From Escherichia coli (GTDB lineage Bacteria > Pseudomonadota > Gammaproteobacteria > Enterobacterales > Enterobacteriaceae), in NCBI RefSeq assembly GCF_051903065.1, contig NZ_CP178438.1: a stretch of 64,000 nucleotides of DNA; one strand, given 5' to 3'. A program made the translations under genes and the position numbers. Positions 4,891 through 27,816 of the stretch are shown here, one piece after another. Under the pieces are notes generated by a model, which saw nothing but the letters and a program-made list of their open reading frames with translations, had not been told where the DNA came from and made no database searches. Each line of letters starts with the position of its first letter. The first letter of the stretch is position 1.

Positions 4891-5772
4891 ATGAACAGGC
4901 TTTTTTCAGGTCGTTCCGATATGCCCTTTGCGCTGCTGCTTCTCGCGCCCAGCTTATTACTGCTGGGCGGTCTGGTGGCGTGGCCGATGGTGTCGAATAT
5001 CGAAATCAGTTTTTTACGTCTGCCGCTCAATCCCAACATCGAGTCAACGTTTGTTGGGGTGAGTAACTATGTACGCATTCTCTCCGATCCCGGCTTCTGG
5101 CACTCGCTGTGGATGACGGTCTGGTATACGGCGCTGGTGGTGGCGGGCAGCACCGTGCTCGGGCTGGCGGTGGCGATGTTTTTCAACCGCGAGTTCCGCC
5201 TGCGCAAAACCGCGCGTTCGCTGGTGATCCTCTCCTACGTAACGCCGTCTATTTCGCTGGTGTTTGCCTGGAAATACATGTTCAACAACGGCTACGGCAT
5301 TGTGAACTACCTCGGCGTCGATCTTCTGCATCTCTATGAGCAGGCACCGCTGTGGTTCGATAATCCGAGCAGTAGCTTTGTGCTGGTGGTGCTGTTCGCC
5401 ATCTGGCGCTACTTCCCGTATGCCTTTATCTCGTTTCTGGCGATTTTGCAGACCATCGACAAATCGCTGTACGAAGCGGCAGAGATGGATGGCGCTAATG
5501 CCTGGCAACGGTTTCGCATCGTCACGCTGCCCGCAATTATGCCGGTCCTGGCGACGGTGGTGACCCTGCGCACCATCTGGATGTTCTACATGTTCGCTGA
5601 CGTTTATCTGCTGACGACGAAGGTCGATATTCTCGGCGTTTATCTCTACAAAACCGCCTTTGCCTTTAATGACTTAGGGAAAGCGGCGGCGATCTCGGTG
5701 GTGCTCTTCATCATTATTTTCGCTGTCATTCTGCTGACCAGAAAACGGGTGAACCTCAATGGCAACAAATAA
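4891..5772 (+). CDS. ycjO: Sugar ABC transporter permease (293 aa)
   Basis: Multi-TM protein with the MalF/G-like EAA motif region; operon context. Confidence 0.85.
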   Translation: MNRLFSGRSDMPFALLLLAPSLLLLGGLVAWPMVSNIEISFLRLPLNPNIESTFVGVSNYVRILSDPGFWHSLWMTVWYTALVVAGSTVLGLAVAMFFNREFRLRKTARSLVILSYVTPSISLVFAWKYMFNNGYGIVNYLGVDLLHLYEQAPLWFDNPSSSFVLVVLFAIWRYFPYAFISFLAILQTIDKSLYEAAEMDGANAWQRFRIVTLPAIMPVLATVVTLRTIWMFYMFADVYLLTTKVDILGVYLYKTAFAFNDLGKAAAISVVLFIIIFAVILLTRKRVNLNGNK

Positions 5773-6601
5773 ACGCACACTCAGTCGCATCGGTTTTTAC
5801 TGCGGGCTGGCGCTGTTTCTCATCATCACGCTGTTTCCGTTTTTTGTGATGCTGATGACCTCGTTCAAGAGCGCAAAAGAGGCGATCTCGCTGCATCCTA
5901 CGCTGCTGCCACAGCAGTGGACGCTGGAGCATTACGTCGACATTTTTAACCCGATGATTTTCCCGTTTGTCGACTACTTCCGTAACAGCATGGTGGTGTC
6001 GGTGGTTTCATCCGTGGTGGTGGTATTTCTCGGTATTCTCGGGGCTTACGCGCTTTCTCGCCTGCGCTTTAAAGGTCGGATGACCATCAACGCCAGCTTT
6101 TACACGGTGTACATGTTCTCCGGCATTTTGCTGGTGGTGCCGCTGTTCAAAATTATCACCGCACTTGGCATTTACGACACCGAGATGGCGCTGATCATTA
6201 CCATGGTGACGCAAACTCTGCCCACCGCCGTGTTTATGCTGAAAAGTTACTTCGACACCATCCCTGATGAGATCGAAGAAGCGGCGATGATGGATGGCCT
6301 CAACCGTCTGCAAATCATCTTCCGTATCACCGTGCCCCTGGCGATGTCCGGGCTGATATCGGTGTTCGTCTACTGCTTTATGGTGGCGTGGAACGACTAT
6401 CTGTTTGCGTCGATTTTCCTCTCCAGCGCCAGCAATTTCACCTTACCGGTGGGCCTGAACGCGCTGTTCAGTACGCCTGATTACATCTGGGGACGGATGA
6501 TGGCGGCCTCGCTGGTGACCGCATTGCCGGTGGTGATTATGTATGCGCTTTCGGAACGTTTTATTAAGAGTGGTTTGACCGCCGGTGGCGTGAAGGGCTA
6601 A
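5759..6601 (+). CDS. ycjP: Sugar ABC transporter permease (280 aa)
   Basis: Multi-TM permease with EAAMMDG motif; start overlaps ycjO stop. Confidence 0.85.
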   Translation: MATNKRTLSRIGFYCGLALFLIITLFPFFVMLMTSFKSAKEAISLHPTLLPQQWTLEHYVDIFNPMIFPFVDYFRNSMVVSVVSSVVVVFLGILGAYALSRLRFKGRMTINASFYTVYMFSGILLVVPLFKIITALGIYDTEMALIITMVTQTLPTAVFMLKSYFDTIPDEIEEAAMMDGLNRLQIIFRITVPLAMSGLISVFVYCFMVAWNDYLFASIFLSSASNFTLPVGLNALFSTPDYIWGRMMAASLVTALPVVIMYALSERFIKSGLTAGGVKG

Positions 6602-23701: not shown

Positions 23702-23793
23702 GATCGTCTCTGGTTCAGGAAGTATTACAGGCAGTGTTGTGCAAATTTTGCGGATTATCAAATCCTTTTCTTCAACGCTATGTCATCGATCTT

Positions 23794-23827
23794 GTATCAC
23801 TTTTTTGCCGGAAGTTGTTTGTATTTT
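23794..23827 (+). promoter_or_regulatory. Conserved 34-bp motif (copy A) upstream of mpaA
   Basis: tgtatcacttttttgccggaagttgtttgtattt; 30 of 34 identical to copy B at 27783-27816. Confidence 0.5.
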
Positions 23828-23991: not shown

Positions 23992-24642
23992 TTACATGAA
24001 GAATGGCTTATCGCCATCAGTCCCGGGTTGATTGATGCCTATATTCTCACCAATGTGTTTCTCAGGTTTATCGATGATATCTGTAATTAATGCTGCGACA
24101 CTCTTACGTGATACGATCGTACCTTTGAATGGTTCATTGCGTGAGGTAAGCTCATAATCAATAATATCTTCATCCGTCAGCCAGGCAGGGCGAAGAATTG
24201 TATAATCCAGTCCAGAAGCCTCAATTGCATCCGCAGCCCTGCGGAATGGTTTTAGGGGCTCACCAATAACTGCATTATTCCATTCGCCAAATTTTCCTGG
24301 AACTTCATCATAAATGCCGAGGGAAAGAACAAAGATCAGACGTTTAACATCACAGGCTTTCATCGCAGCGATCACTGAATTTGCCTGAATATCTAAATCT
24401 TCCCCCGTAAGGTTGGCATACACAATATCCTGTCCCTGCATGGCCTGCTTCAGTGCTGCATGATTCAGTACATCCCCCATAATAATCTGGCTATTAGTTG
24501 GATAGGGTTTGTGTATTTTTGCTGGCTGACGAGCAAATAAAGTTTGTTTAATGGTTTGTTTATCTGCCAGTTGATTAATCACATGGCGGGCTATCTGACC
24601 GCCAGCACCAAGAATGAGTACTTTTTTCATAATATTTCTCAT
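23992..24642 (-). CDS. NAD(P)-binding oxidoreductase (NmrA/atypical SDR-like, about 212-216 aa); appears intact here
   Basis: Rossmann motif VLILGAGGQIARHV near the N-terminus; open frame to stop. Confidence 0.7.
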   Translation of the reverse strand: MRNIMKKVLILGAGGQIARHVINQLADKQTIKQTLFARQPAKIHKPYPTNSQIIMGDVLNHAALKQAMQGQDIVYANLTGEDLDIQANSVIAAMKACDVKRLIFVLSLGIYDEVPGKFGEWNNAVIGEPLKPFRRAADAIEASGLDYTILRPAWLTDEDIIDYELTSRNEPFKGTIVSRKSVAALITDIIDKPEKHIGENIGINQPGTDGDKPFFM

Positions 24643-24647
24643 GAAAC

Positions 24648-25580
24648 TTATCCCAGATGGGTGTTGAAAAAAGGAATAACTTTTTCCAGCGCCTCCTGAA
24701 CTGCTTCCGGTTTGTCATACAGTTCATAATGTGAGAAATCGGGTAATGAAACTAACTGACGATCCTGCGAAACCATCGCCCGGCCATAGACTTCCAGTCC
24801 ATCACGATAAGCACCGAAGGCACCGACTTTTTCACCAACTACTACCATCACCGGCTGAGTCAGTAACACTTCAGTAAATGCGAAGGCATCCCAGGCCAGC
24901 GTTTTCTGTGCATGTGAGAACAACATTTTTGTCGCACCTCCCGGTTGTTGCCCGCGTGGTGTTTTATAGTAGTCAGTTGCTTCATAAACATCGCGTTCGG
25001 TCAGTCCATGGGCTTTTGCTGCATCCAGGCTGGCGGGAAGTAATTCGTTGATCTGTAATTCTCCACCACGAGCCTCTTTGGTTCGTTGCGACGCCATTGC
25101 ATTCAATGCGCCAATCGGATCGTAATTGCTGAAACCTTCCCGAAAAAGACGCCCGATATTAACACCCGTAATACTCACTACAGCTTTAATTCGTTTTTCT
25201 GTCAGCGCGGCATTAATGGCATAGCCCCTCCCCCCACACACACCCAGCACGCCAATGCGTTCAGCATCAACATATGGCAGAGTTACTGCATAATCGATAA
25301 CACGGCTAATATCCTCTACGCGCTGTGTCGGATCTTCTATCCAACGAGGCTCCCCACCAGATTCTCCCTGGAAATTGGCGTCATAAGCGAGAACGACATA
25401 GCCTTTTTCAGCCAATGCCTTGCCATAGATATTGCCAGACGTCTGCTCCTTACAACTGCCAAAAGGATGGACGCTGATAATCGCCGGATACTGTTTTGAC
25501 TCATCAAAATTTGGTGGAAACTGAATATTGGCAGCAATATGCCAGGCCATATCACTATTGCGGATTTGAATATGTTTCAT
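24648..25580 (-). CDS. Alpha/beta hydrolase, paralog of YcjY (310 aa)
   Basis: About half its residues are identical to the adjacent YcjY ORF by eye (shared YDAxxQGESGGEPR and IGxxGxCxGxGY blocks). Confidence 0.7.
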   Translation of the reverse strand: MKHIQIRNSDMAWHIAANIQFPPNFDESKQYPAIISVHPFGSCKEQTSGNIYGKALAEKGYVVLAYDANFQGESGGEPRWIEDPTQRVEDISRVIDYAVTLPYVDAERIGVLGVCGGRGYAINAALTEKRIKAVVSITGVNIGRLFREGFSNYDPIGALNAMASQRTKEARGGELQINELLPASLDAAKAHGLTERDVYEATDYYKTPRGQQPGGATKMLFSHAQKTLAWDAFAFTEVLLTQPVMVVVGEKVGAFGAYRDGLEVYGRAMVSQDRQLVSLPDFSHYELYDKPEAVQEALEKVIPFFNTHLG

Positions 25581-26512
25581 TACAGAGTTTCCTCAAAGAA
25601 CGGAGCTAATACTGAAATTGCTTCAGCCACATAGGCTTTGCCGTCATAAAGATCCATATGGTTTGCGCCTTCAACAATGTGATAGCGTTTATCCTGGCTT
25701 GATGCCCGATCGTACAGGTCGTCACTCATCCATTTGCTCCCTGCCTGGCTGCCCGCCACAATCTGCATCGGCTGAGTCAGGTACACTTCCGCCATATGGT
25801 AAGCATCATAGGTAATAATCTGGTTAAGGCTGCGCAAAGTAGCGTAACCCGGTGCTGTTGGATACTGCGCACGAGGGGTGTGGTAATACTCCCAGGCCTG
25901 ACGCAGTTCTTCGTTCGGCGCATCGGCCTCCTTCATTGGAGCCAGTGGCATAATGGCGTATTCTTCGCTGCTAATATCGCTGGTTCGGGCGTTTGAGCCA
26001 GCTTCAATGTGTGGCAGAGCATCAATAGATTTCACATTGTTTTCCCAACCATTGCGGAACATCGAACCAATATTGACCGCACTAACGGTACCGATGGCCT
26101 TGATGCGGCGATCCTGAATTGCAGCATTGGCTGTATATCCTGCACCGGCACAAATTCCCATCGCACCAATTCGGGTATTGTCGACATAAGAAAGCGTTGT
26201 CAGGTAATCAATCACGGCACTGATGTCTTCAGTACGAATGTATGGGTTTTCTAACTGACGCGGCTCGCCGCCACTTTCACCCTGATAAGATGCGTCATAA
26301 GCAATAGTGACAAATCCCTTTTCCGCCAGTTTTTCGGCATAGGTCCCGGCCGTTTGTTCTTTAACGCCCCCACCTGGGTGAGATACCACAATTGCCGGAT
26401 ATTGACGGGTTTCATCAAATTTTGGAGGAAAATAGATCACTGCAGACAAAGAGATGGTTGGATTATTGCTGTTAGTGAAGCTGACTTTATTATTCATCAT
26501 TCCGTTCCTCAT
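25580..26512 (-). CDS. ycjY: Alpha/beta hydrolase YcjY (about 306-310 aa)
   Basis: …MNNKVSFTNSNNPTISLSAVIYFPPKFDETRQY…; the stop of this gene overlaps the start of the downstream hydrolase (ATGA at 25580). Confidence 0.8.
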   Translation of the reverse strand: MRNGMMNNKVSFTNSNNPTISLSAVIYFPPKFDETRQYPAIVVSHPGGGVKEQTAGTYAEKLAEKGFVTIAYDASYQGESGGEPRQLENPYIRTEDISAVIDYLTTLSYVDNTRIGAMGICAGAGYTANAAIQDRRIKAIGTVSAVNIGSMFRNGWENNVKSIDALPHIEAGSNARTSDISSEEYAIMPLAPMKEADAPNEELRQAWEYYHTPRAQYPTAPGYATLRSLNQIITYDAYHMAEVYLTQPMQIVAGSQAGSKWMSDDLYDRASSQDKRYHIVEGANHMDLYDGKAYVAEAISVLAPFFEETL

Positions 26513-26599
26513 GGAGTTGTTGGTTCGTTTTAACGGTTGGTGATATCACTATAGATATTGATCATTAAGTTGATTAGACCCAAAATCATGATTAGACCT

Positions 26600-26613
26600 A
26601 TCATTTAAATGAT
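26600..26613. promoter_or_regulatory. Candidate LysR-type operator (T-N11-A palindrome) in the ycjY-pgrR divergent region
   Basis: Perfect palindrome ATCATTTAAATGAT 25 bp upstream of the pgrR start; preceded by two direct copies of tgattagacc (26571-26580, 26589-26598). Confidence 0.45.
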
Positions 26614-26637
26614 TAATAGATTGTATGGAGATACTGA

Positions 26638-27537
26638 ATGAAGCGTGAAGAGATCGCTGATCTGATGGCGTTTGTCGTCGTTGCAGAGGAGCGTAGCTTC
26701 ACTCGAGCAGCAGCCCGCCTGAGCATGGCGCAGTCAGCTTTAAGCCAGATAGTGCGCCGTATAGAAGAACGATTGGGATTGCGGCTTCTGACGCGAACTA
26801 CGCGCAGCGTTGTACCAACTGAAGCGGGCGAGCATCTTTTGTCTGTTCTTGGCCCTATGTTGCATGACATAGATTCTGCCCTGACATCCCTGAGCGATCT
26901 GCAGAACCGCCCATCCGGGACAATACGTATTACTACTGTAGAACATGCAGCAAAAACGATATTGTTACCAGCCATGCGCACATTCCTGAGATCGCATCCT
27001 GAAATTGATATTCAGCTCACCATTGATTATGGTTTGACCGATGTCGTTTCTGAACGTTTTGATGCAGGCGTCCGTCTGGGTGGGGAGATGGATAAAGATA
27101 TGATCGCCATTCGAATCGGGCCAGATATACCAATGGCTATTGTTGGCTCACCGGATTATTTTTCTCGCCGAAGTGTTCCAACGTCAGTGTCACAATTAAT
27201 AGATCATCAGGCAATTAATTTGTATCTTCCCACATCGGGTACAGCAAATCGCTGGAGATTAATACGCGGTGGACGTGAAGTTCGTGTTCGCATGGAAGGT
27301 CAGCTTTTACTGAATACGATAGACCTGATCATTGATGCTGCAATTGATGGGCATGGATTGGCGTATCTACCTTATGATCAGGTTGAGCGGGCTATTAAAG
27401 AAAAAAAACTGATACGTGTTTTGGATAAATTCACACCAGATTTACCCGGTTATCACCTGTACTATCCACACCGTCGACATGCTGGCTCGGCATTCTCATT
27501 ATTTATAGATAGGCTGAAGTATAAAGGTGCTGTTTAG
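26638..27537 (+). CDS. pgrR: LysR-family regulator PgrR/YcjZ (299 aa)
   Basis: N-terminal LysR HTH (ADLMAFVVVAEERSFTRAAARLSMAQSALSQIVRRIEERLG); divergent from ycjY. Confidence 0.85.
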   Translation: MKREEIADLMAFVVVAEERSFTRAAARLSMAQSALSQIVRRIEERLGLRLLTRTTRSVVPTEAGEHLLSVLGPMLHDIDSALTSLSDLQNRPSGTIRITTVEHAAKTILLPAMRTFLRSHPEIDIQLTIDYGLTDVVSERFDAGVRLGGEMDKDMIAIRIGPDIPMAIVGSPDYFSRRSVPTSVSQLIDHQAINLYLPTSGTANRWRLIRGGREVRVRMEGQLLLNTIDLIIDAAIDGHGLAYLPYDQVERAIKEKKLIRVLDKFTPDLPGYHLYYPHRRHAGSAFSLFIDRLKYKGAV

Positions 27538-27782
27538 CACTACTTGCTGATACATTAATTTAATTCTTCTCTTAACGTATTCTCAGTTCCTTTCAACGTT
27601 TTGGTTATTTTTTATTCTTCGTACAATGGCGACAGATGCTGATTATGATACCGAAAACTGGTTTGAACGTGTGAAGCCCGAACGTAGTGTTCGGTGTTCT
27701 ATGTGCTTTGCCGCATTTTGGCGTCTATTATTTACACTAAATATGATTTAATATATTGATACATAAAACATTTTATGCTTCC

Positions 27783-27816
27783 TGTGTCACTTTTTTGATG
27801 GAAGTTGTTTGCATTT
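27783..27816 (+). promoter_or_regulatory. Conserved 34-bp motif (copy B) upstream of mppA
   Basis: tgtgtcacttttttgatggaagttgtttgcattt, ending 58 bp before the mppA ATG. Confidence 0.5.

Follow-up and report, generated by a model that had tools for sequence, protein, structure and literature searches.

A conserved 14-bp palindrome as a candidate primary PgrR site in the divergent ycjY-pgrR spacer of Escherichia coli

The spacer between the divergent genes ycjY and pgrR of E. coli carries a perfect 14-bp palindrome, ATCATTTAAATGAT (ATCAT-N4-ATGAT, 26600-26613), which equals its own reverse complement, and which together with its flanks is conserved across deeply diverged orthologous loci. It is proposed here as the primary recognition site of PgrR. 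Positions 26548-26617 probably form a shared promoter-operator of ycjY and pgrR, in which the palindrome would be the primary PgrR site and a second, imperfect dyad would aid the repression of ycjY. All positions refer to the 64-kb stretch of DNA that was analysed, hereafter the window, unless another locus is named.

Sequence elements of the divergent spacer

The region was identified as the divergent ycjY/pgrR spacer of E. coli. A 525-bp query spanning the feature matched 5226 of 5426 complete E. coli genomes, with strain A30 at 100% identity, and the genes annotated beneath the A30 match are pgrR and an alpha/beta hydrolase (ycjY). In K-12 MG1655, the matching spacer is flanked by ycjY (b1327) and pgrR (b1328, 'DNA-binding transcriptional repressor PgrR'), and the palindrome corresponds to U00096.3 1391953-1391966. 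Three differences from K-12 were found over the aligned 180 bp (26481-26660): two SNPs in the spacer, at 26521 and 26624, which are both outside all motifs, and one at 26652 in the pgrR coding sequence. The K-12 spacer is the same locus, with no biological difference from the window.

Since RefSeq places the ycjY start at 26500, giving a protein of 306 amino acids, the spacer extends from 26501 to 26637 and measures 137 bp, not the 125 bp of the first-pass annotation. The ATG at 26512, which had been taken there as the start of a longer ycjY open reading frame, is lost in Serratia proteamaculans and is not conserved. According to the annotation and a domain search, ycjY (25580-26500, minus strand) encodes an alpha/beta hydrolase and is the first gene of the divergent operon. 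Its start codon (26500-26498) and its ribosome binding site AGGAA (reverse complement of 26505-26509) lie within 26493-26509 on the minus strand, where the sequence runs TTCATCAT and TTCCT are invariant. On the other side, pgrR (ycjZ; 26638-27537, plus strand) encodes a LysR-type regulator of 299 amino acids, as assigned by annotation and Pfam, and its ribosome binding site GGAG (26627-26630) and ATG (26638-26640) were read from the sequence (26627-26640, plus strand). The G+C content is 31% in 26513-26637, compared with 50% in the whole window.

Two Pfam domains were found in PgrR, HTH_1 at residues 7-65 (E 1.6e-21) and LysR_substrate at residues 90-294 (E 2.5e-35), each exceeding its curated cut-off. 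With about 300 amino acids, an N-terminal winged helix-turn-helix and a C-terminal substrate-binding domain, PgrR is a genuine LysR-type protein. The layout is also that of a LysR-type locus, with ycjY on the minus strand and pgrR on the plus strand flanking the spacer, and this arrangement is kept in all orthologous loci.

Sequence reading and a script both reproduced the palindrome and the two copies of TGATTAGACC (26571-26580 and 26589-26598) that had been noticed in the first-pass annotation. The palindrome cannot be extended, as a T stands on either side of it (26599 and 26614). The two repeat copies are 18 bp apart from start to start, and the exact repeat cannot be extended either. When the 137-bp spacer was shuffled 5000 times with its dinucleotides preserved, 1.6% of the shuffled spacers contained a perfect palindrome of at least 14 bp, 1.6% a non-overlapping direct repeat of at least 10 bp, and 0.02% the two jointly. 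Across the 64-kb window, palindromes of at least 14 bp were not enriched over shuffles (4 observed, 5.2 expected). Palindrome length alone is therefore weak evidence, and it is position and conservation that carry the weight.

The palindrome had also been described as fitting the T-N11-A architecture of LysR-type sites, which is wrong. Since the palindrome has an even length of 14 bp, its symmetric pair is T-N10-A (T26601...A26612; ATCA-N6-TGAT). T-N11-A strings that overlap the palindrome, at 26604 and 26606, are off the dyad centre and trivially frequent in such AT-rich DNA. Compared with the usual LysR recognition site, a dyad with T-N11-A, the dyad here is perfect but the spacing is T-N10-A; the palindrome would work like a LysR box without having its literal motif. 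The window also holds further genes reported as PgrR targets, but no palindrome-like site was found in their upstream regions (tpx-ycjG, mpaA and mppA), and no regulon motif could be derived from them; the tpx start shares only the 7-mer ATGATTA with the spacer.

A second dyad, which was absent from the first-pass annotation, is proposed as a secondary PgrR site. This imperfect dyad, ATCATTAAGTTGAT (ATCAT-N4-TTGAT, 26561-26574), has three mismatches to the palindrome and is one of only four matches with three or fewer mismatches in the 64-kb window. Measured against ATCAT-N4-ATGAT, its arms contain one mismatch in E. coli and are perfect in three of the orthologous loci (L006, L008 and L010). 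In 11 of the 12 orthologous spacers, the dyad precedes the palindrome by exactly 39 bp and has zero or one mismatch in the arms; the chance of finding one or no arm mismatch within the 99-nt flank is 0.7%. By analogy, this dyad may be comparable to the activation-binding site near -10 in the LysR family.

The direct repeats are exact in the window, but the second copy is imperfect in other genera. The right arm of the second dyad forms the beginning of copy 1 (26571-26580, plus strand), in which TGATTAG is invariant in the orthologues. This copy also holds both the predicted ycjY -35 (TAATCA, minus strand) and the predicted pgrR -35 (TAGACC). Because it coincides with both hexamers, it need not be a regulator site. 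Copy 2 (26589-26598, plus strand) is partly conserved and may be a half-site to which the regulator binds near -35 in its inducer-bound state; outside Escherichia it reads TGATTGGACT in most orthologues, and CGATAGGACC or TGATTGGTCT elsewhere. Among the aligned orthologues, the perfect 10-bp repeat is Escherichia-specific, with only TGATT(A/G)GAC common to the genera. A 10-bp palindrome, AATCATGATT (26584-26593), was read from the sequence where it overlaps copy 2, its right arm being the beginning of that copy. It is not conserved and is replaced by AATAATGATT in most orthologues.

Conservation of the palindrome and comparison with related regulators

A scan of a genome collection with PgrR identified orthologues with 84-88% amino acid identity in Citrobacter, Kluyvera, Pseudocitrobacter, Shimwellia, Serratia and one Proteobacteria metagenome-assembled genome, and a further orthologue with 58% identity (L011). 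The same spacer is carried by Klebsiella plasmids. The palindrome and its flanks form a conserved block, TATCATTTAAATGATTAAT (26599-26617), which contains the invariant runs 26599-26605 and 26607-26617. It was unchanged in 11 of 12 aligned sequences from Citrobacter, Kluyvera, Serratia, Shimwellia and the Klebsiella plasmids, and the only change was a central T>G in L010. The other invariant runs of the alignment are 26493-26500 (the ycjY start), 26505-26509 (the ycjY ribosome binding site), 26548-26554 (ACTATAG), 26564-26568 and 26571-26577. The pgrR leader, about 20 nt following TATCATTTAAATGATTAAT, could not be aligned between genera.

The identity at four-fold degenerate sites of pgrR was 31-42% between E. 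coli and the orthologues and 30-43% among the main lineages, values so low that the neutral sites are saturated. Conservation in orthologous regions had been suggested as a check on the palindrome; the comparison was run, and TATCATTTAAATGATTAAT proved invariant despite the saturated synonymous sites of pgrR. Palindrome and flanks stay invariant even between cassettes that have diverged deeply, so that the objection of a lack of conservation fails. Within E. coli, at least 28 exact bases of the 30-mer 26590-26619 were present in 5191 genomes, compared with 5220 genomes that hold the 73-bp core block, and the one polymorphism inspected (B lineage) lies between the repeats.

The sole distant orthologue, L011 (PgrR 58% and YcjY 74% identical), has a different perfect 14-bp palindrome, TTGTTAATTAACAA, at 2949-2962 of that locus. 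It is 52 bp upstream of the pgrR start and has no clear second site in its spacer. The predicted recognition helix of the L011 PgrR carries three changes: A31S, V39M and R40Q. This single case may represent covariation of operator and recognition helix. In a homologue search for PgrR proteins at intermediate distance, all 120 proteins among the matches listed were at least 87% identical.

The nearest solved relatives of PgrR by sequence are AphB (3szp/3t1b), CrgA (3hhg) and 3mz1, which matched over the full length with E values of 5e-33 to 1e-29; neither PgrR itself nor its complex with DNA was found among the solved structures. AphB and CrgA act at divergent promoters with T-N11-A dyads. All three proteins are distant from PgrR in sequence and differ in operators and physiology. 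A paralogous cassette found beside the PgrR cassette in L006, L014 and L017 has the same gene organisation, with a LysR-type gene transcribed divergently from genes for an alpha/beta hydrolase and an SDR, and its regulator is 46-48% identical to PgrR. The dyad upstream of that regulator in L006 (~5040-5107) and L014 (~5949-6020, reverse strand), read by eye, is not the PgrR palindrome but a canonical 15-bp ATGAA-N5-TTCAT with T-N11-A; in L017 (9051-9211), the dyad read by eye is GGTTAT-N5-ATAACC.

Promoter geometry, published binding and competing explanations

For pgrR, a consensus scan predicted a sigma-70 promoter (26575-26604, plus strand) consisting of TAGACC (26575-26580), 18 nt and TATCAT (26599-26604), with a start near 26611. 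The weight matrix ranked it top on the plus strand, and an identical hexamer pair has been given for pgrR (PMC3946193). The predicted -35 is in repeat copy 1, the -10 TATCAT corresponds to the left arm of the palindrome, and the start falls inside the right arm. For ycjY, the weight-matrix scan predicted a sigma-70 promoter (26548-26576, minus strand) with the -35 TAATCA (26576-26571), 17 nt, the -10 TATAGT (26553-26548) and a start near 26541. This prediction is weak (score 4.9, third on its own strand), and the ACTATAG at 26548-26554 from which its -10 is read is invariant in all orthologues. A different pair, ATGATA-19-TCTAAT, has been proposed for ycjY (PMC3946193). A higher-scoring minus-strand candidate, TTCACG-18-TACAAT, was discounted, as it lies in non-conserved sequence and is weakened by a K-12 SNP.

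A 10-codon open reading frame (26609-26641; MINRLYGDTE) begins at an ATG within the right arm of the palindrome, and its TGA stop overlaps the pgrR ATG (ATGA). In a protein search, many close PgrR homologues were called with 309 rather than 299 amino acids. By manual reading, the leader of the Klebsiella locus L017 is 1 nt longer, which would put the palindrome ATG in the pgrR reading frame and thereby explain the 309-residue calls. The leader is not conserved, and the predicted pgrR start is downstream of the palindrome ATG.

Relative to the predicted ycjY start at 26541, the centre of the palindrome (26606.5) is at -65.5, that of the second dyad at -26.5 and the region of repeat copy 2 at about -47 to -52. 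The candidate extended region comprises a second dyad 39 bp from the palindrome at about -26 and a half-site at about -47 from the predicted start. As in the canonical LysR-type control regions, such as those of BenM, CbnR, AtzR and DntR, the regulator gene is divergent from its target, a strong dyad would overlap the predicted regulator promoter and lie about 65 bp upstream of the predicted target start, and a weaker dyad would fall between the predicted target -35 and -10; negative autoregulation is known from published work. The span of about 60-70 bp is comparable with the canonical LysR footprints of 50-60 bp. Unlike the canonical systems, the candidate PgrR dyad has an even length of 14 bp (ATCA-N6-TGAT), which falls one base short of the canonical 13/15-bp LysR box, and the reports on PgrR describe repression only. 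In the general LysR-type layout, the recognition site is located at about -65 and the activation sites near -35/-10, footprints cover 50-60 bp, switching proceeds by sliding of dimers, and repression occurs when a tetramer holds the recognition site and the -10-proximal site (PMC8407307). The predicted layout of the spacer matches this canonical arrangement, with a geometry that rests on the weak predicted ycjY promoter.

A PgrR (YcjZ) site in the K-12 ycjY-pgrR spacer was reportedly described by Shimada, Yamazaki and Ishihama in 2013 (Genes Cells 18:123) and is said to be curated in RegulonDB/EcoCyc. PgrR has been characterised by genomic SELEX, with ycjY/ycjZ in the target list and a regulon of ycjG, ycjXF-tyrR and ycjY-ymjDC-mpaA (PMC5934670). 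RegulonDB holds exactly one classical PgrR site, which was recovered by both DAP-seq and gSELEX (PMC10949920). In DAP-seq, the fold value at the pgrR promoter was 5632 for PgrR, compared with 4413 for LacI at lacZYA (PMC10505187 supplement). Knock-down of pgrR raised the activity of the pgrR promoter in glucose (log2 0.97 in PPTP-seq), which was confirmed with a tunable-TF strain; the ycjY promoter showed a small rise that was not called significant (log2 0.28-0.60), and ycjG a small positive change (PMC10505187). Binding of PgrR to the spacer, repression of the ycjY operon and autorepression are hence already known. The binding data cited here are resolved to the spacer rather than to the palindrome, and the protected bases may be centred elsewhere. 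The proposal that the region is a PgrR autoregulatory and activation site could be retained in part: it is a LysR-type control region, and conservation, the domains of PgrR and the published spacer binding make the palindrome the best candidate for the primary site. The activation part found no support, since the published effects are all repression (PMC5934670; RefSeq 'transcriptional repressor PgrR'; signs of the PPTP-seq changes).

We infer from these data the following operator model. A dimer of PgrR DNA-binding domains on the palindrome would form the high-affinity recognition complex. Because the palindrome covers the predicted -10 and start of pgrR, bound PgrR would exclude RNA polymerase and thereby cause autorepression. 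The palindrome would at the same time be about 65 bp upstream of the predicted ycjY start, with the weaker second dyad between the predicted ycjY -35 and -10. By spanning the two dyads, a PgrR tetramer would bend the DNA and hold ycjY off, and mpaA as well via read-through. An inducer might move the distal dimer onto the TGATT(A/G)GAC element near -47, whereby the ycjY promoter would be freed or activated. This ligand-induced shift with activation is a prediction based on analogy with the LysR family.

The conserved block could instead consist mainly of two overlapping divergent core promoters, with PgrR contacting the TGATT(A/G)GAC repeats or another sequence and the symmetry of the palindrome being incidental. 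Both predicted -35 hexamers are indeed in repeat copy 1, and the predicted pgrR -10, which PMC3946193 also lists, is the left arm of the palindrome. In SELEX, RNA polymerase holoenzymes alone select the spacer, with a strong peak of 17.2 for RpoE and 4.4 for RpoH (PMC5493296). However, the 19 invariant bases exceed the needs of a -10 hexamer, both arms are symmetrically conserved, the dyad recurs at a fixed offset of 39 bp, and repeat copy 2 is the least conserved element. Judged against the sigma-E consensus, the repeats are -10-like where they read GGTCTAATCA on the ycjY strand, but a manual check found no acceptable sigma-E -35 at the right distance (16 nt) from either repeat, and a sigma-E promoter was rejected. 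We regard this promoter-based explanation as unlikely. Still less probable is a reading in which a different DNA-binding protein recognises the palindrome, be it H-NS or some other nucleoid protein, a Fur-like protein or another dimeric regulator. The 31% G+C content of 26513-26637 would suit such a protein, as would the rise of the ycjY promoter upon hns knock-down (log2 0.88) with its ChIP-exo evidence (PMC10505187) and the AT-rich, H-NS-type nature of other PgrR gSELEX targets, for example leuO (PMC5934670). Against this, a perfect dyad that is invariant base by base is atypical for H-NS, PgrR alone gave the DAP-seq signal in vitro, and the element accompanies pgrR in every genomic context, including plasmids, as a cognate operator should. 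Among other candidate sites considered, the IHF consensus was not fitted in a manual check, the likeness to a Fur site is merely AT-rich GAT/ATC content, and the Dam site GATC at 26560-26563 is not conserved.

That the symmetry and repetition arose by chance in AT-rich DNA, or belong to a hairpin or leader at the RNA level, is very improbable. The number of palindromes of at least 14 bp in the window, no greater than in shuffles as described above, speaks for chance, but conservation against a background of saturated synonymous divergence effectively refutes it by phylogenetic footprinting. With respect to RNA, no Rfam match was obtained for the spacer element at E<=1, and the RNA folded no better than shuffles (z = 0.05, -0.83 and -0.23), with no stable fold. 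As the predicted pgrR start is inside the palindrome, the palindrome would not be transcribed whole. Hence, the palindrome as the primary PgrR site in a shared promoter-operator is the explanation that we prefer.

A portable cassette with its own operator

In all orthologous loci, pgrR is divergent from a ycjY orthologue, which is usually followed by a second hydrolase gene and an SDR gene. None of the cassette loci outside Escherichia (L003-L014, L017 and L019) adjoins mppA, mpaA or ycjG. The flanks beyond the cassette genes are not shared with these loci, so the ends of the cassette cannot be defined more precisely. The cassette was also observed on Klebsiella IncF-type or conjugative plasmids. 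Within 23992-25580 of the window, the SDR gene (216 aa) is intact and is accompanied by a gene for a second alpha/beta hydrolase (310 aa, about 40% identical to YcjY). At the corresponding position of K-12 (L001 6681-6934), only the short remnants ymjC and ymjD are annotated, which indicates a deletion in K-12.

The SDR-hydrolase-ycjY-pgrR block is bracketed by a 37-nt direct repeat with 86% identity (23790-23826 and 27780-27816), the copies being 3990 bp apart. Of 5426 complete E. coli genomes, 174 matched an artificial junction lacking the block in one piece, at about 99% identity over its full length (100% coverage). Where the site is empty in this way (e.g., in CP131_Sichuan), mpaA and mppA are adjacent and divergent, and the empty site is a hybrid of the two 37-nt repeat copies. 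It is compatible with either a deletion by recombination or an ancestral empty site. A separate observation concerns the gap between pgrR and mppA, where RefSeq annotates in strain A30 a 75-bp internal fragment of an epoxyqueuosine reductase (queH) pseudogene (27635-27709; L002 7323-7397). This fragment may be the remnant of an earlier genomic context.

The empty sites, together with the unrelated contexts and the plasmids, suggest that the chief role of PgrR is to regulate, locally, a cassette that is portable. We tentatively raise the possibility, which we hold with some doubt, that PgrR is not primarily a regulator of peptidoglycan recycling but a local, probably inducer-responsive regulator of a self-contained accessory cassette of about 4 kb. 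On chromosomes and plasmids of Enterobacterales, this cassette would bring along an atypical operator in which two ATCAT-N4-ATGAT dyads are spaced by 39 bp and have T-N10-A instead of T-N11-A. The link to murein-peptide genes would then be a by-product of the mpaA-mppA location that the cassette has in Escherichia, through read-through into mpaA.

Overall, the gain over the existing PgrR literature and RegulonDB is little. It consists of an operator model at the level of bases, with the palindrome at -65, a dyad 39 bp away and both predicted core promoters overlapped, of the correction concerning T-N11-A, and of a portable regulator-operator-hydrolase cassette, which 174 complete E. coli genomes lack. 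The portable cassette bears on how the name 'peptidoglycan recycling regulator' is to be read. It also matters when looking for the inducer, probably a substrate of the YcjY-type hydrolases.
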